In this document: one piece after another, positions 5,546 to 21,706 of the stretch | How positions within the stretch are numbered: the stretch's first letter is position 1 | Layout: every line of letters starts with the position of its first letter | NCBI GenBank assembly: GCA_003141675.1 | Contig: PLND01000053.1 | Coordinates: forward strand, 6,153 to 60,134 | Length of the DNA: 53,982 nucleotides | From: Anaerolineae bacterium | Lineage (GTDB): Bacteria > Chloroflexota > Anaerolineae > Anaerolineales > RBG-16-64-43 | Reading direction: 5' to 3' | Notes under the pieces: generated by a model | Database searches by the model: none | Seen by the model: only the letters and a program-made list of their open reading frames with translations | Told to the model about the DNA's origin: nothing | Program-made: the position numbers and the translations under genes

Positions 5546-7594
5546 CTAACTCTTCGAGAGCGAATAGAAATAGAGGTCCGAGTAAAGCGGATTCCAGTAG
5601 AACCCGTTCACCCAGCGCTGGAAATAAAAGCGCGCGCCCGCCTGCGCGAGCAGGATTGCGGGTACGTTATCGTAATACAGCTGGTTGAACTGCTTGTAGA
5701 TCGCCGCGCGCTTGACTGGATCAGTCTCGTGCGCGCCTTGTTGCACCAACGGCGTCATCTGATCGATGAGCGATTTCGGCAAGCCCTGTTTCCCGCCAAA
5801 GTTCCCCAGCGAGTAGGTGAACACCCAGTTATGCGGATCGGGAATGTCTTCGATCCAGCCGAGGATGAAGAAAGGCAGTTTCTTGTGCTGGTAGGCGGTC
5901 AGGTAGTTCGACCATTCCAGGCCCTGGGCTTCGACTTTGAAATTCGGGTTTACCTGGCTGATGTCGTTCTGGAAGATCTGGGCGACGGTTTGGCGCGCCG
6001 TGTTGCCGGTGTTATAACCGATGGTCAGCCGGAAGCCCTCGTCCCACAGGCTCTTGCCGTCGGCCGACTTCCAGGTCGAGGCCTTGAACTCGTCCGCGCA
6101 TTTACCCGGATCGTAGGAGTAGTGGGCGCCGGTCGGCTCGTCGCCGATTTCCCCCTGCAGCATGACATCGTTGGCCTGAACGCCTTCACCCATCTCCACA
6201 TCCTTGATGTACGTGTCCCAGTCGAAGCAGTAAGCAAAGGCTTTGCGAACATGGATGTCGGAGAAGAAGTCGGCGGGAACTCCATTGCCGTCCAGTTTGC
6301 CGGAACCGATGAAGGTGTTGCCGCCCGTCGTGTCGATCTTGAAATTAAAGAAGGCATCGGTGCGGTTGGCGACGGGCTGTTTGACATAGCGCACGGCCTG
6401 CTTGTCGGCGCCATCGATGGCACATACGCCATTCGCATCGCAGGTTGCGCCTTCGAGCGTATCCAGTTGGGTCCAATCGGCCGCACCACCCGGCACGATG
6501 TAGTCCCCGTCACCCGCCTGGAAGGTCGCAAACCGAGTGGCGAATTCGTCGATCTGCTTGATGATGACGGTCTGAATCTTCGCTACACCGGAGGGCCCGC
6601 CGGTCCACAGCGGGGTCTTGAGCCAATAGTTCGGATTGGCTGTCAGGGTCATTTGCTGGTCGCCCCATTCCTTCAGCGTATACGGGCCGGTCCCGTTTTC
6701 CCCTTTGCCGATGGGGTTCTTGTTCTGTTCTTCGGAGGTCGGCGCGTAGAAGTTCTGCCAGGTTGCGCAGTCGCCGTTCCATCCGCCGTTAGCTCCCACC
6801 CAGGTCTTATCCTGAACTCCGCCCCACATGTTGGCGAAGGTAACAAGGAACGGACCCCAAGGCTGCGCCAGATTGAATGTGACTGTGCCGGCGGTGTCAT
6901 CCGCAACGATGGCGGAAGTCACTTTCTGGCAAAGTGCCGTCAGATCCGCTGGTTTTTCCTTTCCAAGGCCTTCGCGGTTGTCGAGCAATCCTTTCGCGCC
7001 GTCGGGGTCGAGCTGATCGGTGATGTCGTTGTTGGCTGTGGTTCCCAGAACCGGTTCGGTAAACAGCCACTGCGGCGAGATGGAGCCGCCCGATAAAATC
7101 CCGCGCTGGAAGGTGAACGCCACATCGTCCGGGGTCATCGTATCGCCGTTGTGGAATTTGACACCCGTCCGGATCTTAAAGGTATAGGTCTTTCCGTCGG
7201 CGGAGATGCCGCCATTTGCGGCGGAAGGAACTTCCGTGGCCAACTGTGGAACCAGCTCCGTGATTGAATCCCGCTTGTAGGTCAAGAGGTAGTCGTAGAC
7301 CTGCTGGATGATCCCACCACTTGCCGTGTCGTAGGCCAGTGCGGGGTCGAGTGTGTCGACGTTCCCGAATTCCAGAGCGACAAACGTGGTCGGGTCTTTG
7401 GATTTAAACCCGGCCGAGAACGTGGGCGTGTTGGTTGCCGCTATCGTCGGTATGGCCGTCGCCGCGGCCGTCGAAATGGCCGTCGCCGCGGTGGTCGGGA
7501 TTTCCGTTGCCGTGGCTGCGGTGCCGCAAGCCGAAAGGATCATGCCGCCCACGACCATCAGGCCGATAACAAGGATTTTCTTTCCATGGAACAT
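5546..7594 (-). CDS. oppA: Peptide ABC transporter substrate-binding lipoprotein (family 5)
   Basis: Lipobox LSAC, Thr/Ala-rich linker, TLDPA, YTFKIRTGVKFHNG and GTGPY motifs. Confidence 0.9.
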   Translation of the reverse strand: MFHGKKILVIGLMVVGGMILSACGTAATATEIPTTAATAISTAAATAIPTIAATNTPTFSAGFKSKDPTTFVALEFGNVDTLDPALAYDTASGGIIQQVYDYLLTYKRDSITELVPQLATEVPSAANGGISADGKTYTFKIRTGVKFHNGDTMTPDDVAFTFQRGILSGGSISPQWLFTEPVLGTTANNDITDQLDPDGAKGLLDNREGLGKEKPADLTALCQKVTSAIVADDTAGTVTFNLAQPWGPFLVTFANMWGGVQDKTWVGANGGWNGDCATWQNFYAPTSEEQNKNPIGKGENGTGPYTLKEWGDQQMTLTANPNYWLKTPLWTGGPSGVAKIQTVIIKQIDEFATRFATFQAGDGDYIVPGGAADWTQLDTLEGATCDANGVCAIDGADKQAVRYVKQPVANRTDAFFNFKIDTTGGNTFIGSGKLDGNGVPADFFSDIHVRKAFAYCFDWDTYIKDVEMGEGVQANDVMLQGEIGDEPTGAHYSYDPGKCADEFKASTWKSADGKSLWDEGFRLTIGYNTGNTARQTVAQIFQNDISQVNPNFKVEAQGLEWSNYLTAYQHKKLPFFILGWIEDIPDPHNWVFTYSLGNFGGKQGLPKSLIDQMTPLVQQGAHETDPVKRAAIYKQFNQLYYDNVPAILLAQAGARFYFQRWVNGFYWNPLYSDLYFYSLSKS

Positions 7595-12594: not shown

Positions 12595-14025
12595 TCATGG
12601 CTTCCCGGGGGGCGACCAAATGAGAGTCCAAGGGCCAGGCACGGAAACACCAACATCGCTGTCCAGTTCGACGGTTAATTTTCCAATTGGTATATGTCCA
12701 TTCTTATAGGTAACAAACACATCATCTGGGTCCACTATGCAGTCTTCATTATCAAGTCCTTCTAAAATGCAGAGACTAAAATCGTGGCTATCATCGGTAA
12801 GTCGATGATTTGTAATAAAGGTATAGCCCGTCTTTGTCATTGTTACTTCCTCGATCACATATTCAACCCCGAGCAAAATGACATGTTGATTGATTTTCCA
12901 TGTTTGACCAATTTGTGGATTTGCGCCGGTATCGAACTGGAAAGTGGCGCTTTCGCTTGTATGAACACCTACATTATCCAACCGCAGGGTCAGCGGGAAG
13001 ATGATGGGTTTTTCGATTTCGTAGGCCCATTGAAACGAGTTATTCCATTGATCCGCTGGCCGGATGTCGGTCCGTGGCCAAGCCGTAATCCTATTTCCTT
13101 TTGCATCCGTAAAGATAAAAGGATCAACTACAGGATAATCTTTGCCTACCCCACAACATTGACCAGGCAAATCACCCGCGTTGGTGAAATTCCCAATCAA
13201 GAGATATGAATCTTCATATTCGATAACTCTATCCAGATAGAGACCCGTACCATTTGGTACGCGGGTTGGCATGGGTGGCCAGTTGGTCGGATATTCATCG
13301 GTAATTTCAAGAGTCGGGCTGGCGGTTGTTTTGAAGGTTGGGCCGGATTTCTGGGCGGTAACCCCGATTTCCACGCCGGGGGTAATAAAATTCTTGGGAG
13401 CAGGGATGAGCGAGAAGGGGACTTCCAAATTGAACGTCGGTCCAAATTTGTTCGTGGGATCGACGTTGGGGAAGACCAACACAACTTTCTGCGTATCCGA
13501 AGGTAAAGGCGGAAATGTACTACTTGTATTAATACGACCGCTCTCGCTTGACCATCCCATTCCGCCGCCAGTGGAGGAAGTTAGTTCTTTGCCGTTTCCC
13601 AAACGCAGGACGGGAATGGGGAAGAAATCACCGGGACCAAATGGGAAGCCATCGAAATGATACTGTATCACCGTGCGGGTTGCATCCGCTATGACTGTAT
13701 CCACCACAATGATAACCCCTCCATGCTGCACGCGGACCGGCTCCTTTAGGACACGAACAGGTGCGCTCAAATCCACGAGACCCACGCCGGGGAGGTAGCC
13801 CATGGTTTTTCCGATCACATACGCCACGCCGGTTAACAACGCCAGGGCGAGAACCAAAACAAGAATCAACAAAGCGGGTCTTGAACGCAAGGTTTGTAGG
13901 AAGGTCTTCTTTCTTCCACGAGCGGAATCGGGGATAAGGTTAACGAGGCGCGGCAGCAGATTGATGTCGCTCGGAATGTAGTCGGCTGCAACCGCATCCA
14001 GAACATCGTGATACGTCCTGTTCAT
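12595..14025 (-). CDS. Membrane-anchored putative anti-sigma factor (DUF4179-like), single TM with a large extracytoplasmic part
   Basis: Short N-terminal cytoplasmic region, one TM, then GYLPGVGLV; start overlaps the ECF sigma stop; paralogous to 46653-48992. Confidence 0.65.
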   Translation of the reverse strand: MNRTYHDVLDAVAADYIPSDINLLPRLVNLIPDSARGRKKTFLQTLRSRPALLILVLVLALALLTGVAYVIGKTMGYLPGVGLVDLSAPVRVLKEPVRVQHGGVIIVVDTVIADATRTVIQYHFDGFPFGPGDFFPIPVLRLGNGKELTSSTGGGMGWSSESGRINTSSTFPPLPSDTQKVVLVFPNVDPTNKFGPTFNLEVPFSLIPAPKNFITPGVEIGVTAQKSGPTFKTTASPTLEITDEYPTNWPPMPTRVPNGTGLYLDRVIEYEDSYLLIGNFTNAGDLPGQCCGVGKDYPVVDPFIFTDAKGNRITAWPRTDIRPADQWNNSFQWAYEIEKPIIFPLTLRLDNVGVHTSESATFQFDTGANPQIGQTWKINQHVILLGVEYVIEEVTMTKTGYTFITNHRLTDDSHDFSLCILEGLDNEDCIVDPDDVFVTYKNGHIPIGKLTVELDSDVGVSVPGPWTLIWSPPGKP

Positions 14026-14567
14026 TTCGCGTTCCTTTCCCCGAGCAAACTCCGCAAACGGTTACGGGCGGCGTTCAATAACCATTTGACGGTACCCGGC
14101 GCGGCGCCGAGCGTGCGCGCCATTTCCCCTTCACTCATTCCAAGATAATAACGATCGATAATTACAGCACGTTGTCTCGGCGAGAGTTTCGATATAGCGG
14201 AGAGAATTTCCTTTCGGAGATGTGCAAACTCCACCTGTGATTCGACCGTGGCAGCACGATCGAGCAGCGATTCCACTTCGTCCAGATCATCCAACGGAAT
14301 CGATCGGTTTTCGCGTCGCACCAGATGCAACGCCATATTGACCACGCTACGCATGAGATACGGCTCGAACGGGCGCGTCTCGTCGAAGTGTTGGATGCCT
14401 TCTATCATTCGAAGGAACGTCTCTTGAACGACATCCTGTGCGGTGGTTTCATCATGCATGATAAGGAATGCCACTCGAGCCGCTTTGACCTGATAACGCA
14501 CGACGAGCGGTTCTAACCCGCTGGTATCCCTGCGTTTTAAGCGGCGGATGGCCTGCAGATCATCCAT
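14022..14567 (-). CDS. ECF-type RNA polymerase sigma-70 factor
   Basis: AQDVVQETFL, FEPYLMRSVVN, LSPRQR and GTVKWLLNAAR motifs; GGAGG RBS. Confidence 0.9.
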   Translation of the reverse strand: MDDLQAIRRLKRRDTSGLEPLVVRYQVKAARVAFLIMHDETTAQDVVQETFLRMIEGIQHFDETRPFEPYLMRSVVNMALHLVRRENRSIPLDDLDEVESLLDRAATVESQVEFAHLRKEILSAISKLSPRQRAVIIDRYYLGMSEGEMARTLGAAPGTVKWLLNAARNRLRSLLGERNAK

Positions 14568-15037: not shown

Positions 15038-16195
15038 TCATTTTAATTTAATTCGACTCGCCTTTGGCTCTTGCAGCCGGATCCTGGGAGCGGTCGATTT
15101 GTATTGGCTTTCACCCATGCTCTTGGCCGGCACCAGGGTCAGGATTTTTTGCGCTCCGGCTGGCGCGAAGAGCAGCACGATCAATGCGGCCAGCAGGCCG
15201 AAGAACAGCGGCCAGGAAGACGACGGGGAAACCGCCGCCTCCGGAACCAGGCCGCCCGGGTTGTAGGCTCCCTTGGCGGGCACGGCGAGCGTGGAATCCG
15301 AAAGTTTGACGCTCAATGCGCGGTTGAGACCGTCCCGCAACGAAGCAGGGGAAACGTAAGTGATCACGTACTCGCTCTGCAGCGCGCGCCCATACTGTTC
15401 GTACAAATTGCGCAAAGCGGTGGCGTCGTTGACGTATCCATAACTCCCGCCGGCGCGCTCGGCCAAGCTCTTCAGCGACGGTTCGTCGATACCGGCGAGG
15501 GAACTCGTTTTCTGGGTGGAATCGCCGAGGCCGATCGTGGAAATGGAGAGTCCCGGCGGGCCGATCGCGGCGACGATGCCGTCGGCGGTTTGCTTGCTGC
15601 GGTTGTCCATCCCGTCGGTGAGGACGATGATCGCCTTGCGGCCGGAGACGTCCTTGAGCAGGTCGGTTCCCTGGATCAGGGCGTCGTACATCGCCGTATC
15701 GCTCCCGGCGATCAACCCTTGGATCGCCAACTTTAATTTGTCATGATCGGCCGTCACCGGCTGCACATAGGTAATGCGCGTATTAAAGGAAAGGAGGCCG
15801 GCTTCGTCCCCGGTGCGCATCTGATCGACGTAGGCGGAGGCGGCCGATTTGGCCGAGGTCAGTTTATTGTCGTAGTTCATGCTTGCGGAAATATCCACCA
15901 CGAGCAGAGTGGTCAGGGGCACGCTGTTCCCGATACCGGTGACATCGCTGGGAGTGATCCGCTTGCTGTTTTCATAGAGTTGAATGGTATCGAGCTTGAC
16001 CGGGGCGGGTTCGCCTGAACTCTCGGTCACCGAGATGTACACCTTTACCTTCGGAAAAGCGGAAGTATCGACCTGGGTGATGTGCACCTGCAACTGGCCC
16101 GAAGCCTGGGCATGAACCGGCGCGGCGCGTAGCCCCAGGGCTGCCAGGACGAGGAACGGAAGGAAAAATCTGATTTGCGTTCTAAACCGGTCCAT
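15038..16195 (-). CDS. Secreted, membrane-anchored von Willebrand factor A (VWA) domain protein
   Basis: Signal peptide (PVHAQA), MIDAS DISAS...T...LTDG, C-terminal TM and basic tail ending RIRL...RIKLK. Confidence 0.88.
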   Translation of the reverse strand: MDRFRTQIRFFLPFLVLAALGLRAAPVHAQASGQLQVHITQVDTSAFPKVKVYISVTESSGEPAPVKLDTIQLYENSKRITPSDVTGIGNSVPLTTLLVVDISASMNYDNKLTSAKSAASAYVDQMRTGDEAGLLSFNTRITYVQPVTADHDKLKLAIQGLIAGSDTAMYDALIQGTDLLKDVSGRKAIIVLTDGMDNRSKQTADGIVAAIGPPGLSISTIGLGDSTQKTSSLAGIDEPSLKSLAERAGGSYGYVNDATALRNLYEQYGRALQSEYVITYVSPASLRDGLNRALSVKLSDSTLAVPAKGAYNPGGLVPEAAVSPSSSWPLFFGLLAALIVLLFAPAGAQKILTLVPAKSMGESQYKSTAPRIRLQEPKASRIKLK

Positions 16196-16198
16196 GCT

Positions 16199-17056
16199 TC
16201 ACCTCTTTTCGTGATAGACGAGTTCCGTATTTCCCAGCCGCAGGATTTGACGGTTGGCAAGCTGCGCCAATTCCACCCGCCGTTTGTTGACGAATGTTCC
16301 CGTCTTGCTCATATCCTTGATGGTGAAATGCGAGCCGTTACCCGTGAGCATCGCGTGTTGCGGGGCGATATCCGGGTCGGGGAAGACAATGTCGGCTTTG
16401 AGCGCATCGCTGCCGAGGATGACGCTCGGGCCCTTGGCTTTGAGGAATTTATCCAGGATGAACTCGGCTCCGCGCAGCTTGCCGCTGGCCACTTCGATCC
16501 AGGCCCGCGATAGCAGCACGACGATCAGCGCGATGAGCGCTCCGACCGACCCTCCCAGTAGCACCAAGCCCAGCGCCTTTCCCAGGAGCGGATTCTTCAG
16601 CGCGTCGCGGGCGGCTTCCAAAAAGCCTCCACCCACGATCCCGCCGAGCAAGCCTCCCAGCGCGCCCTTCCACATCTGGCTCCCGCCGGTGATCCCTTCG
16701 GCCAGGCCGATCAACCCGCCGAACACTCCCCATCCCAGGGCGCGGCCGAAAAAGCCCGCCCCCAGAATCTGAAACAGGAATTCCCCGAGCGGAAGGCCGA
16801 TGGCGCCGGCTATAAGGCCAAGGCCCGCGGCGACCGCTCCGGCCCGCAATGCGCGGGCGAAGTTCAGCGTGAAGAGGCCTTCGGTGACTCCGATGAGCAA
16901 TCCAATGCTAAGGCCGATCAGCGCGCCTACGAACACTTCGCTCAGGTAGACGCTGCCGGTGAAGGATAATCCCGCCAGGTTGCTGATCTGCCATCCCAAA
17001 AGCCCCCCGATCGCGCCCAGGATTCCATAGTTGTAAGTCCGCATTCCTCTACTCAT
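16199..17056 (-). CDS. Gly-rich multi-pass membrane protein with C-terminal FHA-like domain
   Basis: About 6 Gly-rich TM helices, then LGS...DIAPQHA...IKDMSKTGTFVN...ILRLG (FHA pattern). Confidence 0.8.
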   Translation of the reverse strand: MSRGMRTYNYGILGAIGGLLGWQISNLAGLSFTGSVYLSEVFVGALIGLSIGLLIGVTEGLFTLNFARALRAGAVAAGLGLIAGAIGLPLGEFLFQILGAGFFGRALGWGVFGGLIGLAEGITGGSQMWKGALGGLLGGIVGGGFLEAARDALKNPLLGKALGLVLLGGSVGALIALIVVLLSRAWIEVASGKLRGAEFILDKFLKAKGPSVILGSDALKADIVFPDPDIAPQHAMLTGNGSHFTIKDMSKTGTFVNKRRVELAQLANRQILRLGNTELVYHEKR

Positions 17057-17771
17057 GGTTCTCCGCTCCTTCCGTCAATCCCTCTGGTTTTTCCAGTTCG
17101 AGGTTCTTCCAATACACAAGGCTCTTTCCGGAATTCCCGACGATCTCCAGAAATCCATGGTAGCGGTGATGGTCGAGGCTCCCGTCTTCTTCCCGCACGA
17201 AGAACCCGCCGATCTGGGTGTGCGGTTCGATGACCAGCGCCACCTGCCATGGTTCCGGAAAAAAATGTTGATGCAGCCAAAGGTCGTAATCCGAAAGGAA
17301 AACGCCCATTCTTGGGTGGGTGTGGAACCACCCGACCATGCGCTTTTCCGGATAGCGCGTCTCCTGCTCGTCGTGCAGTGCCACCAACGTATCCTGGGTG
17401 AAGGTGAGGAAAGCGCTTCCGTGCCGGGTGAACCGGGCGGGGAGCACGGCTTCCGCCACGATGAATTGCTCCCCGCTCGGATTGTCGATCCGCCATTGGC
17501 CGATAAGCGCTCCGCCCACTTCGTTGTCCATATCCTGTCCGGCCAGGGAACAGATCTGGACAAACGCGGGCTGGGTGAGGAACACCGACACCGCGGGTTT
17601 GCTCCCGTCCCGGTCGAACGGCGAGTTCCACCGCCGGACCTTCGATCGCGGGATGCGCGAGGGGCGCGGGTCCGGAGTCTCGGGCGGGCCGAGCCGGACG
17701 CGCGAAGATTCCGTTTTGGGGAATTCTTCGCCCTGTGGGAGTTCTGCATCGACCATCGGCATGACAGTCAA
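17049..17771 (-). CDS. JAB/MPN+ (Mov34) metallo-isopeptidase (putative deubiquitinase / Ubl-processing enzyme)
   Basis: EVGGALIG ... GWFHTHPRMGVFLSDYD matches the JAMM motif E-xn-HxH-x7-S-x2-D; exact start codon uncertain. Confidence 0.9.
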   Translation of the reverse strand: MTVMPMVDAELPQGEEFPKTESSRVRLGPPETPDPRPSRIPRSKVRRWNSPFDRDGSKPAVSVFLTQPAFVQICSLAGQDMDNEVGGALIGQWRIDNPSGEQFIVAEAVLPARFTRHGSAFLTFTQDTLVALHDEQETRYPEKRMVGWFHTHPRMGVFLSDYDLWLHQHFFPEPWQVALVIEPHTQIGGFFVREEDGSLDHHRYHGFLEIVGNSGKSLVYWKNLELEKPEGLTEGAENHE

Positions 17772-17774
17772 CCC

Positions 17775-18041
17775 TTAGCCGGCGGTGACGTCGGCGGTGA
17801 GGATCAGGCGGTCGCCGGTGGGAACCGACGCGGAGGAAAGGGTTTCCTCCTCCTGCAATTCGCGCCCCAGCGCCTTGCTGTCGATGCGATAGCTCATCGG
17901 TCGGCCGTCGGGACCGGTAGTCGGCAGCTGCAGCGAGGTGGTCAATTCCGGAATGAGTTCCTTGACGACCACGTCGTTCGGAACCTCCGCGGTGCGGGAG
18001 CCGCCGGATGGTAATACTACGGTAACGGGAACGTCAGCCAT
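17775..18041 (-). CDS. Ubiquitin-like beta-grasp protein (EsaB/YukD-like) ending in a free C-terminal Gly
   Basis: 88 aa; ETLSSASVPTGDRLIL resembles the ubiquitin TL..YNI...TLHL strand; ends TAG-stop; AAGGAG RBS. Confidence 0.85.
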   Translation of the reverse strand: MADVPVTVVLPSGGSRTAEVPNDVVVKELIPELTTSLQLPTTGPDGRPMSYRIDSKALGRELQEEETLSSASVPTGDRLILTADVTAG

Positions 18042-18056
18042 TTTCTCGTCTCCTTA

Positions 18057-18317
18057 TTACGAATTGCGGATGGTGCGCGGGTTTGGGTCCTGCTTGTCTT
18101 GCGGATACGCGCTCAATTGGTCCTCGTTCTTTGTATACGGAAGAAACGGAGAAGAGCCGAAGTCACGGAAAAATTTATTGTTCTCCTTGCCCCATTTATT
18201 TCCAATCAAGGAGTTGGAGTTATCCAAAAGGAATTCTCGGTGAGTTCCGTTATTTTCGGTGCCCCCGGCCCGACCCATGCCGGGGCGGGCTTCCGTGTAC
18301 TGGTTTTTACTAGACAT
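18057..18317 (-). CDS. Small hypothetical protein within the Ubl operon
   Basis: 86 aa; strong AAGGAGG RBS; fills the gap between the Ubl-E2 and Ubl genes; no recognisable domain. Confidence 0.6.
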   Translation of the reverse strand: MSSKNQYTEARPGMGRAGGTENNGTHREFLLDNSNSLIGNKWGKENNKFFRDFGSSPFLPYTKNEDQLSAYPQDKQDPNPRTIRNS

Positions 18318-18336
18318 TCCTGCCTCCTTGTCCTTC

Positions 18337-19173
18337 CTACTTCAACCGGATGCGCGGGGCGGGGTTTTTTTTCAGTTTGACCCGTCCCGGCCGCAACAGT
18401 TCGCGCTCGTCCACCGGAAACGCGTGCGGATGGTCGGCCCGGTAGGCCCGGCTCCAGCGCGCGGCATCCGGATCCCAGGGGAAGGGCGGCTTGGTGGGAT
18501 CGTCGTGGAAGTTCTTGTACTGCACCATTTCGCCCAGCATGATCACCAGTCGGTCCAGCGAACGGCTGGCGGTCCACCAGGCCACGTCGATGCAAACTGT
18601 TTTGTTGAGATGGTGAATATTCGGATGCCAGATCGGGGTCAGCCATTTCAGCCCGGGCCAGCGCTGCGGATACTGGTTGTGCAGGTAGATTTCCACCTGA
18701 TGATGGCTGGAATATTTGGGCCGCCCCAGTTTGTCGATTGCGGCGATTCCCTTACATCGGTACGTGACGATGTACCGTTCCGGCGCGGGGGATCCCCTGG
18801 AATCCACAGCCTCGAAAGTAATCAGGCTGCTCTGGGCGGCCAGTTCGCGCATCAACTCGTAATCCGCGATCAACCGGCGCACGCGCGGGCTTTGGGAGAG
18901 CGCCATGCCGCCGGCGGTGATGTCCGCCGTCAGGATCAAGCGGTCGCCGGAGGGAATCTTGGCCGAGGCGAGGGTTTCGTCCTCGCGCAGCTCGCGGCCC
19001 AGCGCCTTGCTGTCCATGCGGTATCCCATCGGCCGACCATCGGGTCCGACGGTGGGCAGTTTGAGAAGCGACGTGAGCTCCGCCATCAGGTCGCGCACCG
19101 GCGCGTCGTCGGGTACGTCGGCGGTGCGGGCGCCGCCGCTGGGCAAAACGATGGTCACGGATAGATCAGCCAT
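18337..19173 (-). CDS. Ubl-E2 (ubiquitin-conjugating, UBC-fold) fusion protein
   Basis: Residues 1-88 are a Ubl (63/88 identical to 17775-18041 by manual alignment) ending TAG-G; then RVRRL..DY, YPQRWP and IWHPNI...VCID (HPN motif plus catalytic Cys). Confidence 0.9.
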   Translation of the reverse strand: MADLSVTIVLPSGGARTADVPDDAPVRDLMAELTSLLKLPTVGPDGRPMGYRMDSKALGRELREDETLASAKIPSGDRLILTADITAGGMALSQSPRVRRLIADYELMRELAAQSSLITFEAVDSRGSPAPERYIVTYRCKGIAAIDKLGRPKYSSHHQVEIYLHNQYPQRWPGLKWLTPIWHPNIHHLNKTVCIDVAWWTASRSLDRLVIMLGEMVQYKNFHDDPTKPPFPWDPDAARWSRAYRADHPHAFPVDERELLRPGRVKLKKNPAPRIRLK

Positions 19174-19235
19174 TGTGTCGGGCTCCTTGTGTTACAAGAA
19201 TTTACATCCGTATCGTTCGCGTTCCCGCCGGAAGG

Positions 19236-19970
19236 TCAGGTGTGATAATGCGGAACCTGGCACATTCCGGTGATATCCCAGCAATCCTTGTGGTGGCGGG
19301 TGTGGCAGATCGGGCACACGACCACTCCGCGCGGATCCCTCGCCTCGATCGGTTGCAGGCAGTAGGGGCATTTGTATTTCTCGGCCCCGGTCAGGCGGAT
19401 CTCGGCATCGGGCCGCGCCCTTTGGAAGAACCGCAGTACGCCGCCGAAGCGATTGCGGGATGGGCGCGCGTCCTTTGCCGGCGCAGTGGCTTTAATTTTC
19501 TTTTCCAGTGCGGCGGATGGCTGCGGTTCCCCCAGAACCTCTCCGGCTGGTGCGGGGGCGGCGCGTTTCCTCCAGGCAACGAGGGCGAGCGCGGATGTGG
19601 CGGCGCCGATCGCCATCAATCCCAACGCCCCCCAATCCGGACGTCTCTCCGCGGGGAGGGTGGGATCGGCGCCGACCAGTCCCTGGGTCAGCCAACCCAT
19701 GATCAACAAGCTCAGCAATGTGGCGGTGATCGCGGCGGTTAATCGCAGCGGAAACGAAAACCGGCGAAAGAAAAGACGGGAGACGAACCCCAGGAAGATG
19801 CCTGCTCCCGCAGCGGCCGCGATTGCATAAACCCACGGCAAGATTGTGTCGTTGACCACCCCGGCAACCGCGAACCCCGCCGCCGTGAAACAAGCCAGCA
19901 GCGCCAGAAGTTCCAATCGGAACAGCAGCAGAAACAATCTCGGTGAGGAGTAAGGCTGGGAACCGCTCAC
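19236..19970 (-). CDS. Membrane protein with C-terminal prokaryotic RING-like zinc finger (putative E3)
   Basis: About 4 TM helices; C-terminal CPYC-x14-CPIC-x3-HH-x2-CW-x5-C-x3-H fits the Prok-RING_1-type pattern; GTG start overlaps the E1 stop (GTGA). Confidence 0.8.
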   Translation of the reverse strand: MSGSQPYSSPRLFLLLFRLELLALLACFTAAGFAVAGVVNDTILPWVYAIAAAAGAGIFLGFVSRLFFRRFSFPLRLTAAITATLLSLLIMGWLTQGLVGADPTLPAERRPDWGALGLMAIGAATSALALVAWRKRAAPAPAGEVLGEPQPSAALEKKIKATAPAKDARPSRNRFGGVLRFFQRARPDAEIRLTGAEKYKCPYCLQPIEARDPRGVVVCPICHTRHHKDCWDITGMCQVPHYHT

Positions 19971-21640
19971 GGCACACTCTCGTCCGGTGCCGTTTTTTCG
20001 TCGTGTAGAACGATCCGTCCGGCCGCCGGGCCCTTGTCTCCCTCATCCGGTTCCACGGCTTCCCCCAGGGAGATGCGTTCACGCAGCGGGATGGCAGAAA
20101 CGGCTTCCGGATTTTCGAAATGCCGGAAGTGCAGCGTCTCGGAAAGATCGCCGGTTAATTCGTAGAACCGAAACTCGCTTGAGTTGCGGGCGCGCAGAAT
20201 GTGAAGGGGGGGCACGCCCACGCTGGAAAGCGTCCGCTCCAGGAAGGTCTCGTCGCCGCGGATCTCGTGTGTCAGCTCGATTTCGCGCAGCAGGCCGCAG
20301 GACGGACAGTGGCCGGCTTCGAAGGTCACCGCTTCGAGCGGACGCAAGACCTCCTCGCGGGTGTGGCAACTCGGGCAGGTGAGAGAGAGGATCAATTCCT
20401 GATCCAGTTCGATCACGGCGTCGGACCCCAGATCCTGGCGCACCAGGCGCAACATCTCGGAGAGGGTTGTGCGGGAAGCACGCGCCGGAAGCTCGATCAC
20501 CTCGCCGTAGACCCAGTGGCTCTCGCAATCCTCGCGCGGGACATAGGCGCTGGTGTGCATCTCGTTGGTCAATCCGTTGAAATGCACAACCTTGCCTGCT
20601 TCCACCGGCATCCCGTGGATCAGCTTGAGCGCTTCCTGAGCCTGCATGCCGCCGATGATCGACGCGATCGTGGGAGTGGTCGGGACTTTTCCCAGGAGGA
20701 TGTTTTGCCGAGCCAGCAGCGGGCAGGAATAGCGCAGGGAAAGATCGCGCCGCGCCTGCTCGGTGAGCGTGCATTCGAAACAGGCTCCGCGGCCGGGGAC
20801 GAACGTGCGCACCAGTCCCAGCAACTCCTGGATGGCGCCGTCGACCCACGGCTTGTTCATCCAATAGCAGAAGCGGTTCAACGCCAGCCGGGCTTCGCGG
20901 TTATCGAGGCATCCGATCACGGCGTCCATGCGCCGGATGATTCCCAGGCCCAGCTGGGTGGTCACGTCCCCATCGAGGTATTGGACGTGCACATGTGGAT
21001 TGAGGCTCCTGGCGCGCGAGGCGACAACCTGGGCTTTGCTGCGTTTGGTATCCCCCTCGCGGAAGAGCACCGAGCGACTGAGGTTGGCCGCCTCGACCGT
21101 ATCGAAATCGACGATAAAAAGGTGTCCGATACCCATCAGGGCGAGGTTCTTGATCACTTCGTTGCCGAGCGCGCCCGCGCCCACCACCATCACATTGGCG
21201 TCCCGGACCTTGTCCTTCTCCCACCAGGAAATGAATTCGAAAGTTCCCAGCCGGTCCGTTTGCAGATTGGGAACGTGGAGCGGTTTTTCCGAGCTAGCGG
21301 GGAGGCGGTGCGGGCCGCTCGGGGTTTCTCCGCCGGGCGGGGTTTTTTCCGCGCCAAGCTGCCGGTAGGCGCCGGCCAGGTCGCGGGCCGCCGCGAGATT
21401 GTCGGCGTCCAGTTTGCACGCGAACCATCCCACGCCGGCCCGGGCTTCGATCAGACCGTTTTCTTCCATAGCCTTGAGCGCCTCGCGTAGCGTGGCGCGG
21501 CTGATATCCAGTTGCTGGATCAACTCCCTTTCGGAGGGGAGTTGTTCACCGGCCTTAATCGATCCATCGAGCACAGAGCCCGACAGACGCCCGGCGACAG
21601 CCTGTGATAATGACACGTGTCCGATCGGTAATATCTTCAT
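19967..21640 (-). CDS. GntR-family HTH fused to ThiF/E1 ubiquitin-activating enzyme with Zn-ribbon C-terminus
   Basis: N-terminal GEQLPSERELIQQLDISRATLREAL (GntR wHTH); GAGALG, DFDTVEAANLSR, CLDNREAR, CFEC, candidate catalytic YSCP, two CPSC; start taken as ATG 21640. Confidence 0.92.
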   Translation of the reverse strand: MKILPIGHVSLSQAVAGRLSGSVLDGSIKAGEQLPSERELIQQLDISRATLREALKAMEENGLIEARAGVGWFACKLDADNLAAARDLAGAYRQLGAEKTPPGGETPSGPHRLPASSEKPLHVPNLQTDRLGTFEFISWWEKDKVRDANVMVVGAGALGNEVIKNLALMGIGHLFIVDFDTVEAANLSRSVLFREGDTKRSKAQVVASRARSLNPHVHVQYLDGDVTTQLGLGIIRRMDAVIGCLDNREARLALNRFCYWMNKPWVDGAIQELLGLVRTFVPGRGACFECTLTEQARRDLSLRYSCPLLARQNILLGKVPTTPTIASIIGGMQAQEALKLIHGMPVEAGKVVHFNGLTNEMHTSAYVPREDCESHWVYGEVIELPARASRTTLSEMLRLVRQDLGSDAVIELDQELILSLTCPSCHTREEVLRPLEAVTFEAGHCPSCGLLREIELTHEIRGDETFLERTLSSVGVPPLHILRARNSSEFRFYELTGDLSETLHFRHFENPEAVSAIPLRERISLGEAVEPDEGDKGPAAGRIVLHDEKTAPDESVP

Positions 21641-21648
21641 AGGTTGGC

Positions 21649-21675
21649 TGGTATGCTGGTCAGACCAGTATACCA
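21649..21675. promoter_or_regulatory. FadR/GntR-type palindromic operator
   Basis: TGGTATGCTGGTCAGACCAGTATACCA, a near-perfect 27-bp palindrome with core TGGTCTGACCA (minus strand), 9 nt upstream of the GntR-E1 ATG. Confidence 0.75.
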
Positions 21676-21678
21676 ACA

Positions 21679-21706
21679 ATTCTAAAAGGTTTTTAAGGCT
21701 TGTCAA
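21679..21706 (-). promoter_or_regulatory. Sigma70-type promoter of the Ubl operon
   Basis: TTGACA (21706-21701), 16-nt spacer, TAGAAT (21684-21679). Confidence 0.7.

Follow-up and report, generated by a model that had tools for sequence, protein, structure and literature searches.

A short linear motif shared by the tails of a ubiquitin-like conjugation operon in an Anaerolineales bacterium, with the ubiquitin-like protein as its candidate reader

The present study concerns a stretch of 53,982 nucleotides from an Anaerolineae bacterium (Chloroflexota; Anaerolineales; RBG-16-64-43), positions 6,153 to 60,134 of contig PLND01000053.1 in assembly GCA_003141675.1, to which we refer as the window and in whose numbering the coordinates of this operon and its neighbours are given. 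At positions 15038-21706, on the minus strand throughout, the window carries a tight 7-gene operon for a ubiquitin-like protein (Ubl) cascade, namely an activating enzyme fused to a GntR domain (E1), a transmembrane RING protein (TM-RING), a fusion of a Ubl with an E2 (Ubl-E2), a free Ubl, a JAB metalloprotease, a transmembrane FHA protein (TM-FHA) and a membrane-anchored VWA protein. We found that a short motif, R-[IV]-x-L, recurs in the tails of the E1, Ubl-E2, JAB and VWA proteins. The initial annotation of this DNA had proposed a common docking motif, and the idea is well supported by the conservation of the motif, by the predicted disorder of the tails, by the co-variation of its flavours between E2 and JAB and by its recurrence in a Trp-containing flavour. 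As for the partner, we tentatively favour an operon-wide short linear docking strand, similar to the SUMO-interacting motif (SIM) and the LC3-interacting region (LIR), which would bind by strand addition and whose reader would be the Ubl.

All the strings quoted in the initial annotation were found at their places, and every copy lies on the minus strand. The VWA protein has APRIRL (residues 369-374; 15074..15091) followed by SRIKLK (residues 380-385; 15041..15058) at its extreme C-terminus, and Ubl-E2 has GRVKLK (residues 263-268; 18370..18387) followed by APRIRLK (residues 272-278; 18340..18360), again at the extreme C-terminus. In both proteins the tandem copies are 10 residues apart. The E1 tail holds ERISLG (residues 543-548; 20063..20080) and GRIVLH (residues 563-568; 20003..20020), and JAB carries SRVRLG near its N-terminus (residues 23-28; 17688..17705). 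The tandem pairs were thus borne out in the C-tails of VWA, Ubl-E2 and E1, with a single copy in the N-tail of JAB. A degenerate form, EIRL, is present in TM-RING (residues 190-193; 19392..19403), 9 residues ahead of CPYC, and one further strict match, RRVEL at residue 260 of TM-FHA, falls inside the FHA domain. As had been remarked earlier, APRIRL is identical in two unrelated proteins, and the codons of its two copies differ (gct ccc agg atc cgg ctg vs gcc ccg cgc atc cgg ttg); hence the identity exists at the protein level, and a DNA repeat as its source was ruled out.

The tail pairs stand far above the proteome background. This background was a crude, length-greedy, non-overlapping set of open reading frames (ORFs) of the whole assembly (2307 proteins, 829,882 amino acids), in which R[IV]xL occurs 678 times, or 0.82 per 1000 residues, composition predicting 0.99. 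The motif is present in the last 20 residues of 26 of the 2307 proteins, and at least two copies in the last 40 residues were found in two of them, both from the operon (E1 and VWA). Ubl-E2 would count as a third; it is absent from the crude set, having been displaced by a longer shadow ORF. A position-specific scoring matrix built from the orthologs gave 20 matches in the genome set with scores of 12 bits or more, and the VWA and E1 of the operon account for 4 of them. Scanning for other clients with this matrix revealed no further convincing terminal copy in the genome set, and the single weak C-proximal match elsewhere is in a 177-aa protein on contig C34.

Conservation was followed in 80 related loci fetched from species genomes, where the genes were called as stop-to-stop ORFs matched by BLASTP or phmmer, with approximate N-termini, and where both the strict pattern R[IV]xL and a relaxed pattern, [RKH][IVL]x[LIFMV], were counted. 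At least one relaxed copy was found in 80/80 E2 tails, 52/59 usable VWA tails and 72/73 usable E1 tails, and at least two in 61/80, 25/59 and 65/73, respectively. By the strict pattern, at least one copy remained in 59/80 E2, 42/59 VWA and 62/73 E1 tails. Strict density per 1000 residues was 29.7 in the tail vs 0.45 in the body of Ubl-E2, 22.5 vs 0.95 in VWA and 28.6 vs 0.20 in E1, a difference of 25-140 fold across the three proteins. Furthermore, among the best 120 homologues of Ubl-E2 (73-100% identity), the last 32 residues contain at least one strict copy in 110 and at least two in 66, and three of these homologues have three copies.

The distance to the C-terminus is kept in a similar manner. 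Exactly one residue follows the last copy in 69/80 E2 tails, and this residue is K in 74/80; after the last relaxed copy of VWA there is one residue in 36 and two in 10 of 52 tails, and in E1 exactly two residues lie beyond it in 53/72. The Ubl-E2 tail reads LLRP(E/G)R(V/I)K(L/I), a variable linker and (K)PR(I/V)(R/K/H)LK-COOH, its first copy taking the form LRP(E/G)R(V/I)(K/R/H)(L/I/V) in the 61 tails that have two relaxed copies. The terminal copy of VWA is (K)(P/S)R(I/V)KLK(D)-COOH, and the two E1 copies follow (L)R(E/D/G)R(I/V)(R/S/H)(L/I)(G/K) and GR(V/I)(K/V/R)L(H/R)(D/E). The JAB orthologues mostly start M-x-x-(S/P)-R-(I/V)-(R/H)-(L/I/V/F)-x-P-P, with the copy at the very N-terminus. 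Throughout these loci the motif is kept while the linkers drift, and its core at all sites, as seen in the motif logos, is [IV]-x-[LI]. Conservation in orthologs, on which the earlier proposal depended, therefore extends to the tails of four proteins across the 80 loci, with varying linkers.

The same proposal had counted EIRL of the RING protein as a variant of the motif. It is indeed present before CPYC, and the TM-RING orthologues have a φ-x-φ unit (φ, hydrophobic residue) at positions -13 to -7 relative to CPYC in 78/78, but this copy is degenerate, with strict R[IV]xL in 4/78 and a basic first residue in 24/78, and it may instead be part of the RING finger fold. No tail copy was found at the termini of 77 TM-FHA orthologs or in the Ubl orthologs.

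Structure models were obtained with AlphaFold2 using ortholog alignments. The Ubl, E2 and JAB cores fold in these predictions, and the Ubl-E2 tail has a predicted local distance difference test (pLDDT) score of 54 and then 36, without secondary structure. JAB was predicted with a mean pLDDT of 84, its residues 1-30 having about 50. Since the tails are predicted to be unstructured, the motif behaves as a short linear motif and not as part of a domain. In addition, a complex prediction of FHA residues 185-285 and the free Ubl, with Ubl-E2 tail residues 244-278 as partner, gave ipSAE values of 0.02 and 0.01 and a mark of 0.32 in a run without controls, and these values speak neither for nor against binding.

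When Ubl-E2 was searched against the full library, 150 cluster representatives (50% identity) were obtained, 102 of which align to the end of the E2 core with a tail of 10-120 residues. In 70 of these 102 distant E2s the last 8 residues include a φ-x-φ unit, as against 26.7±4.4 in shuffles (maximum 38 of 1000), and 90 have at least two such units in the tail (shuffles 69.2±3.9). The 70 terminal motifs comprise 31 basic, 16 neutral and 23 acidic flavours, examples being SRIRVTS...SRIKIVKK, DFEIVILDDDEDFDIVVLR, DFEIRIL and EDVDIKLL. Judging from these sequences, a two-strand tail with a terminal copy is a general trait of this bacterial E2 family, R-I-R-L-K being one of its flavours.

By alignment of the acidic-tail E2s (subset A5, a first alignment, A4, being too diverse), 80 metagenome loci were found; the flavour classes of some clades were assigned by eye. 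They are mostly smaller operons, E1-Ubl-E2-JAB, some with a downstream zinc-finger gene. No VWA match was obtained among these 80 loci, FHA matched only in L133 and L135, and by eye the E1 of the smaller operons ends at its last folded domain, with no tail motif seen. The flavours of the E2 C-tail and the JAB N-tail are matched: (E/D)FEIR(I/L)L goes with (D/E)(F/Y)DI(K/R)(V/I)GP, LDITLI..IEIEFN with LEIILGQ, (M/V)VIR(I/L)K with LIIRVK or IKIRIK, and QI(I/S/V)WDD with EIIWEE. Co-variation was assessed by an unsupervised test. From 123 loci, each of the 14 clades into which the E2s fall at 60% identity was represented by a single locus, and the E2 tail was compared with the JAB N-region by their highest-scoring gap-free 6-mer match under BLOSUM62. 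Within loci this score averaged 18.1, compared with 15.4 between clades (p=0.0008 by permutation and p=0.0026 by the Mann-Whitney test), and the best match was the motif itself in 6/14 clades; pairs from within single loci include APRIRL/SPRVRL, VIRIKA/IIRVKA and QISWDD/EIIWEE. As a separate observation, (I/L)x(I/L)T(E/D)(E/D)D(I/V) stands at the start of the zinc-finger protein of acidic group A and of a 222-aa protein encoded upstream, and by eye it is like the E2 tail of those loci.

The Trp-containing flavour was counted in six loci of the I-x-W clade. Among 46 operon-strand proteins (12,118 residues), [IV]xWx[DEN] occurs 35 times, compared with 3.9±1.9 in residue shuffles (maximum 11 of 1000) and 2 in 12,408 residues of other-strand or distant ORFs, and 26 of the 35 matches fall near a terminus (first 50 or last 35 residues). 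The pattern is present at the C-terminus of E2, at the N-terminus of JAB and in the linker of a small transmembrane zinc-finger protein. Further carriers are the C-termini of Ser/Thr protein kinases, with two copies each, and the N-terminus of a TPR protein; several carriers have no Pfam matches. The motif-ending kinases stand beside the E1-Ubl-E2-JAB genes (L131:12993-14566, L137:6189-7682 and L159:12551-13957). At the sequence level this clade is an independent replicate of the operon-wide shared motif. Kinases in the I-x-W operons and an FHA domain in the present operon hint at a link with phospho-signalling. We also observed that in the I-x-W clade JAB possesses an additional domain and, at its C-terminus, a membrane segment.

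With regard to the reader, the motifs of E2 and JAB persist in operons without FHA, without VWA and often without a detected RING, and it must therefore be a core component. In addition, the E2 and JAB flavours are alike rather than complementary, which argues against tail-tail pairing and for a shared site. The Ubl was found wherever it was detectable, and no Ubl examined has a tail motif; no other component combines these two properties. The free Ubl of the present operon likewise ends ...TADVTAG without one, and has a net charge of -6, with -2 in its β2-α1 segment. For comparison of charges, Ubl residues 14-37 were chosen beforehand by analogy with the SIM groove (they coincide with β2-α1 in the AlphaFold2 model), and tail charge was that of the last 12 E2 residues. 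Without phylogenetic correction, β2-α1 charge and tail charge were anticorrelated in 17 Ubl-E2 fusion representatives (rho=-0.72, p=0.0013), in the 14 fusions that remained when two truncated sequences and one from the same clade were set aside (rho=-0.76, p=0.0016) and in 25 mixed representatives (rho=-0.56, p=0.004). The corresponding values for the rest of the Ubl were +0.10 in the 14 fusions and +0.19 in the mixed set, and for the E2 core of the 14 fusions -0.29 (p=0.32). In a sliding window, the correlation is most negative over Ubl residues 1-42. At positions 27-28 in α1, numbered as in the present Ubl, this operon has K-E, the other basic-flavour clade (L148, L155) has D-D or E-D, and the acidic-flavour clades have R-R, E-R or K-R.

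Several results weigh against the Ubl as reader. The sliding window has a second minimum in the E2 core (residues 103-126, rho=-0.63), and clade means over 9 clades with a separate Ubl gave r=-0.49 and rho=-0.37, with a one-sided permutation p of about 0.10. Whole-Ubl net charge is unrelated to tail charge (rho=-0.08, n=14), the Ubl being net acidic in basic-tail operons and in acidic-tail group A operons alike, and the charge correlations come from small samples and ignore shared ancestry. In the AlphaFold2 models, the tail of the Ubl-E2 fusion is undocked on the Ubl domain of the same chain; the JAB N-tail is likewise undocked on its own core, and no receptor site was revealed. Furthermore, the E1, itself motif-bearing in this clade, might be the receptor, with a tail that binds its own protein. 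The SIM-like pairing with the Ubl suggested by the initial annotation is favoured by the constant presence of the Ubl, by its lack of the motif and by the β2-α1 charge, but the clade-mean charge test is not significant.

If the Ubl is the reader, the following arrangement can be envisaged. The core would be a β-strand-type unit of 4-6 residues, basic-[IV]-x-[LI] in this clade and φ-x-φ generally, with charged flanks, placed, often in tandem, on the predicted disordered N- or C-terminal tails of E1, Ubl-E2 and JAB, which act on the Ubl, and of the membrane partner VWA, with a degenerate copy ahead of the RING. In the YukD-like β-grasp domain, the exposed edge of β2 and the face of α1 would receive this strand, much as SUMO receives SIMs and as ATG8 and UFM1 receive LIR/UFIM motifs. 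Free or conjugated Ubl could then be held by each enzyme at a second site, with low affinity. With its motif among lysines, the VWA tail would act as a client that recruits the Ubl-loaded enzymes to the membrane, possibly also as a substrate, and assembly at the membrane, as put forward in the initial annotation, may hold for this clade.

The motif shares several properties with SIMs, such as a short φ-x-φ(-φ) core, disordered segments, charged flanks, frequent tandem arrangement and occurrence on several members of one Ubl pathway, and its acidic flavours such as DFEIVILDDDEDFDIVVLR resemble textbook SIMs. Unlike SIMs, it is bacterial and goes with a YukD-like Ubl, the flavour of this clade is basic (R-I-R-L-K), the last copy keeps a constant distance of 1-2 residues to the C-terminus, E2 is among the carriers of the motif, and Ubl binding is inferred here. 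In PMC12687455, SIMs are described in flexible extensions of SAE2 (an E1 subunit) and of SENP proteases, the SIM groove is located between β2 and α1, and ATG8, UFM1 and ATG12 are described as binding β-strand motifs in grooves of a similar kind; by these precedents, a motif common to E1, protease, E3 and clients is a known signature of a Ubl-binding linear motif. The present motif also resembles the LIR or Atg8-interacting motif (AIM) and the UFM1-interacting motif of UBA5, which are linear β-strand motifs that bind a Ubl groove. LIR/AIM-type motifs occur on the E1, the E2, the protease and the cargo receptors of the same pathway. The QIIWDD/EIIWEE flavour shares with LIRs an aromatic residue and an acidic flank, but its order is [IV]-x-W-acid and not W-x-x-L, and there is no evidence of homology.

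A further comparison is with YukD/EsaB of type VIIb secretion, since the Ubl here matches Pfam YukD and the tandem motif, with its 6-residue linker, could form a hairpin. According to PMC12637312, the non-covalent partners of the YukD Ubl include FHA domains and a β-hairpin predicted in YukB; by analogy, a hairpin from the tandem copies would be a reasonable ligand shape. Experiments cited by Iyer et al. 2006 showed that YukD does not become conjugated covalently to other proteins. Unlike YukD, the present Ubl ends in a conserved ...TAG and has E1, E2 and JAB as neighbours, and type VII secretion system genes are not present.

Among the other explanations, the motif could dock on another core enzyme, that is, a groove of the E1, the backside of the E2 or the JAB core, which we consider unlikely. 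Precedents for this exist, as the N-terminal peptide of Ubc12 binds on UBA3 and the C-terminal peptide of UBA5 on UFC1. E1, E2 and JAB are present in every operon that keeps the motif, the acidic E1 core (-10) and JAB core (-14) would suit a basic strand, and the secondary charge anticorrelation at E2 residues 103-126 points in the same direction, as does the E1 of the smaller operons, which, by eye, is without a tail motif, as a receptor should be. However, E1, E2 and JAB all bear the motif in the present clade, the E2 tail and the JAB N-tail are undocked on their own cores in the models, and the charge of the whole E2 core does not track tail charge (rho=-0.29, p=0.32). In addition, a motif found on kinase, TPR and zinc-finger neighbours in the I-x-W clade is better explained as a mark for all proteins that meet the Ubl than as a handle specific to E1 or E2.

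Alternatively, the motif could be an acceptor-lysine site, used for self-modification of the cascade and modification of the VWA tail, or a degron for a housekeeping protease. The initial annotation had raised adjacent lysines as acceptors, and K does follow the terminal copy in 74/80 E2 tails and 38/52 VWA tails, in tails that are lysine-rich. This does not hold generally, as the E1 copies mostly end H/R-D/E, with K following in just 6/72, the JAB copy is followed by G-P-P, and the acidic and Trp flavours have no lysine nearby (for example, the ends ...GINIL and ...FEIRIL). The co-evolution of flavours within operons, moreover, points to a reader encoded by the operon and not to a housekeeping one, and we regard this explanation as improbable.

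The copies might also bind each other, as an intermolecular β-sheet, a zipper or an amyloid-like signalling motif of RHIM or BASS type, although this appears decidedly improbable. Known amyloid signalling motifs have about 20-40 residues, are of low charge and rich in G/N/Q and are tied to NLR and effector genes. The tails do resemble the bacterial and fungal ones in that matching lineage-specific motifs, often in tandem, stand at the termini of the products of adjacent genes; such matching is the signature used to find amyloid signalling motifs, as stated in the available portion of bioRxiv 10.1101/2020.01.06.895854. Unlike those motifs, however, the present units have only 4-6 residues, are highly charged and accompany Ubl enzymes instead of NLRs or effectors; no NLR-type domain or pore-forming effector was noticed in the Pfam results of the operons. 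Like charge disfavours in-register stacking, the E2 tail having +6 over 31 residues and the VWA tail +7 over 37, and the acidic flavours are equally charged.

A docking site on the degenerate FHA domain of TM-FHA, by which the cascade would be scaffolded at the membrane, had been offered as the second receptor in the initial annotation. FHA domains bind extended peptides, and TM-FHA is the only other operon protein here without a tail motif. As a general receptor, however, the FHA domain was contradicted by the 80 metagenome loci, in which the matched E2 and JAB motifs persist in E1-Ubl-E2-JAB operons without VWA and, apart from L133 and L135, without FHA matches. The domain is also net basic (+4), like the motif, and no conserved Thr, the core of a phosphothreonine ligand, appears in the motif logos, so that this receptor is very improbable. 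Finally, binding of the motif to membrane or anionic lipid, as a basic-hydrophobic strand that brings the soluble enzymes to their membrane partners, is scarcely credible, for although basic and hydrophobic residues alternate in the core and three operon proteins are membrane proteins, VWA is already membrane-anchored and has two copies nonetheless, and the strongly acidic motifs of sister clades (23/70 terminal motifs) cannot bind anionic lipid.

The operon that carries the motif is itself well defined. Its seven genes recur in 72-80 of the 80 related loci, whose homologues are labelled as Anaerolineales or Chloroflexota proteins from metagenome-assembled genomes (MAGs), and the ThiF-type E1, UBC-type E2, JAB, β-grasp Ubl and Prok-RING_1 finger are colinear, with Pfam matches above gathering cut-offs. 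The PDB search gave eukaryotic E2s (1e-07) and AMSH (6e-06) as the closest matches and no close homologue with a solved structure. In the alignments, HPN...C194 of E2 with the putative catalytic Cys, the putative metal-site residues H150, H152 and D163 of JAB and the C-terminal G88 of the Ubl are invariant. In one locus, L015, labelled Candidatus Eisenbacteria, the E1 tail, TM-RING and TM-FHA are almost identical to those of the Chloroflexi contig L013 from the same sample series, which suggests a binning error in one MAG.

The E1 (19967..21706; 579 aa; Pfam ThiF 1.7e-56 and GntR 6.7e-17; ortholog in 77/80 loci) consists of an N-terminal GntR winged helix, the ThiF adenylation domain, a C-terminal domain and the tail with two motif copies. 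The winged helix is a DNA-binding domain of GntR type at residues 33-95 (21400-21706), and such a fusion of E1 with a transcription-factor domain points to a possible coupling between the cascade and the regulation of its own or other genes. TM-RING (19236..19970; 244 aa; Pfam Prok-RING_1 PF14446, 3.6e-09; ortholog in 78/80 loci) has N-terminal membrane segments, a basic linker and the Prok-RING_1 zinc finger at its C-terminus. Ubl-E2 (18337..19173; 278 aa; Pfam YukD 1.3e-10 and UQ_con 1.8e-08) is composed of a YukD-like β-grasp domain (residues 1-88), a UBC-type E2 core and the predicted disordered tail (about 248-278). The shadow ORF of 301 aa on the opposite strand (18259-19164, plus strand) is longer than the true Ubl-E2 gene, and naive gene callers may mis-annotate this locus. 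The free Ubl is an 88-aa YukD-like β-grasp protein (17775..18041; Pfam YukD 1.3e-12; ortholog in 80/80 loci). There are thus two paralogous Ubl modules, free (17775-18041) and E2-fused (18910-19173), both on the minus strand; the fused one runs on as ...TADITAGG-MALSQ, with ITAGA or ITAGS at this place in the orthologues, and it may need JAB processing for release or may never be conjugated.

The Ubl-E2 and free Ubl genes are separated by about 295 bp without annotated gene (18042-18336), a gap of about 270 bp in L001 and, judging from match spans, seemingly shorter in many of the loci that are more distant; the gap might accommodate a regulatory RNA or a promoter internal to the operon. The remaining genes abut or overlap, by 4 bp for E1/TM-RING and 8 bp for JAB/TM-FHA. 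JAB, of the JAB/MPN metalloprotease family (17049..17771; Pfam JAB 1.4e-07), has 240 aa from a TTG start, and the orthologs suggest from their sequences that the true start is later than the called TTG, just ahead of the motif. After the motif, a second conserved element, P-x-R-(I/M/L)-P...A-x-R-W-x-S-P-(F/Y)-(D/E), occupies JAB residues 31-50 (17640-17690, minus strand). Unlike the motif, it was modelled within the JAB core (pLDDT 84-92, strands 36-38 and 45-49).

TM-FHA (16199..17056; 285 aa; Pfam FHA 1.5e-12) has glycine-rich membrane segments and the FHA domain at its C-terminus (16199-16500, minus strand). When compared by eye with what we take to be the FHA consensus, the phosphothreonine-binding residues of this domain seem to be replaced (G-R by G-S, S-x-x-H by A-P-Q-H and N-G by T-G), and the domain also matches the phospho-independent Yop-YscD_cpl family (1.5e-11). 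The VWA protein (15038..16195; 385 aa; Pfam VWA_2 2.7e-14; ortholog in 72/80 loci) has a signal-peptide-like N-terminus, the VWA domain, a single membrane segment towards the C-terminus and, after it, a basic tail some 36 residues long, which we infer from its sequence and the positive-inside rule to be cytoplasmic. Just downstream of the operon (12595-14567, minus strand) are a gene for an extracytoplasmic function (ECF) sigma factor (Pfam Sigma70_r2, r4_2) and, overlapping it, a gene for a 476-aa protein with one membrane segment and no Pfam match, which is anti-sigma-like. These two genes accompany the operon in 1/80 related loci, and they are therefore probably unrelated neighbours.

The operon type is known in outline. 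Bacterial RING operons were reportedly defined by Burroughs et al. in 2011, and the present operon resembles the Caldiarchaeum-type and Prok-RING_1-type operons in its ThiF-type E1, UBC-type E2, JAB, Ubl and Prok-RING_1 finger. Their archaeal E1/E2/RING/JAB/Ubl counterpart has been reconstituted, according to the accessible parts of PMC5654768 and PMC6043591. Unlike the known operons, the present one adds TM-FHA and the membrane-anchored VWA protein, contains GntR-E1 and Ubl-E2 fusions and has its RING anchored in the membrane. No description of the shared tail motif was found in the literature searched, which included the available parts of PMC1779556, PMC11601603, PMC11354881 and the 2023 Bil preprint, with supplements and the 2011 prokaryotic RING paper outside its scope; the motif may therefore be new.

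Taken as a whole, the tails might constitute an address code of SIM/LIR type, in which the β2/α1 groove of the Ubl is matched to a lineage-specific terminal motif on E1, E2, JAB, E3 and clients, a conjecture that we hold with some reserve. The clients of such a code would be the cytoplasmic tail of the VWA surface receptor here and kinases and TPR proteins elsewhere, and the charge-swapped flavours would serve as natural specificity controls. Few bacterial E1/E2/JAB/Ubl operons have an established biological role or target, and the tail motif offers a route to likely partners from sequence alone. In the present Anaerolineales operon the VWA receptor tail is a candidate partner or substrate, as are the Ser/Thr kinases, a TPR protein and transmembrane zinc-finger proteins in the I-x-W clade. 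If the code is true, a search of genomes for flavour-matched tails could reveal which partners and substrates belong to bacterial Ubl systems that are as yet uncharacterised. Furthermore, non-covalent recognition of linear motifs by Ubls would be older than eukaryotes, and, if the Ubl is the reader, the signalling principle of SIMs and LIRs would already be present in bacteria.

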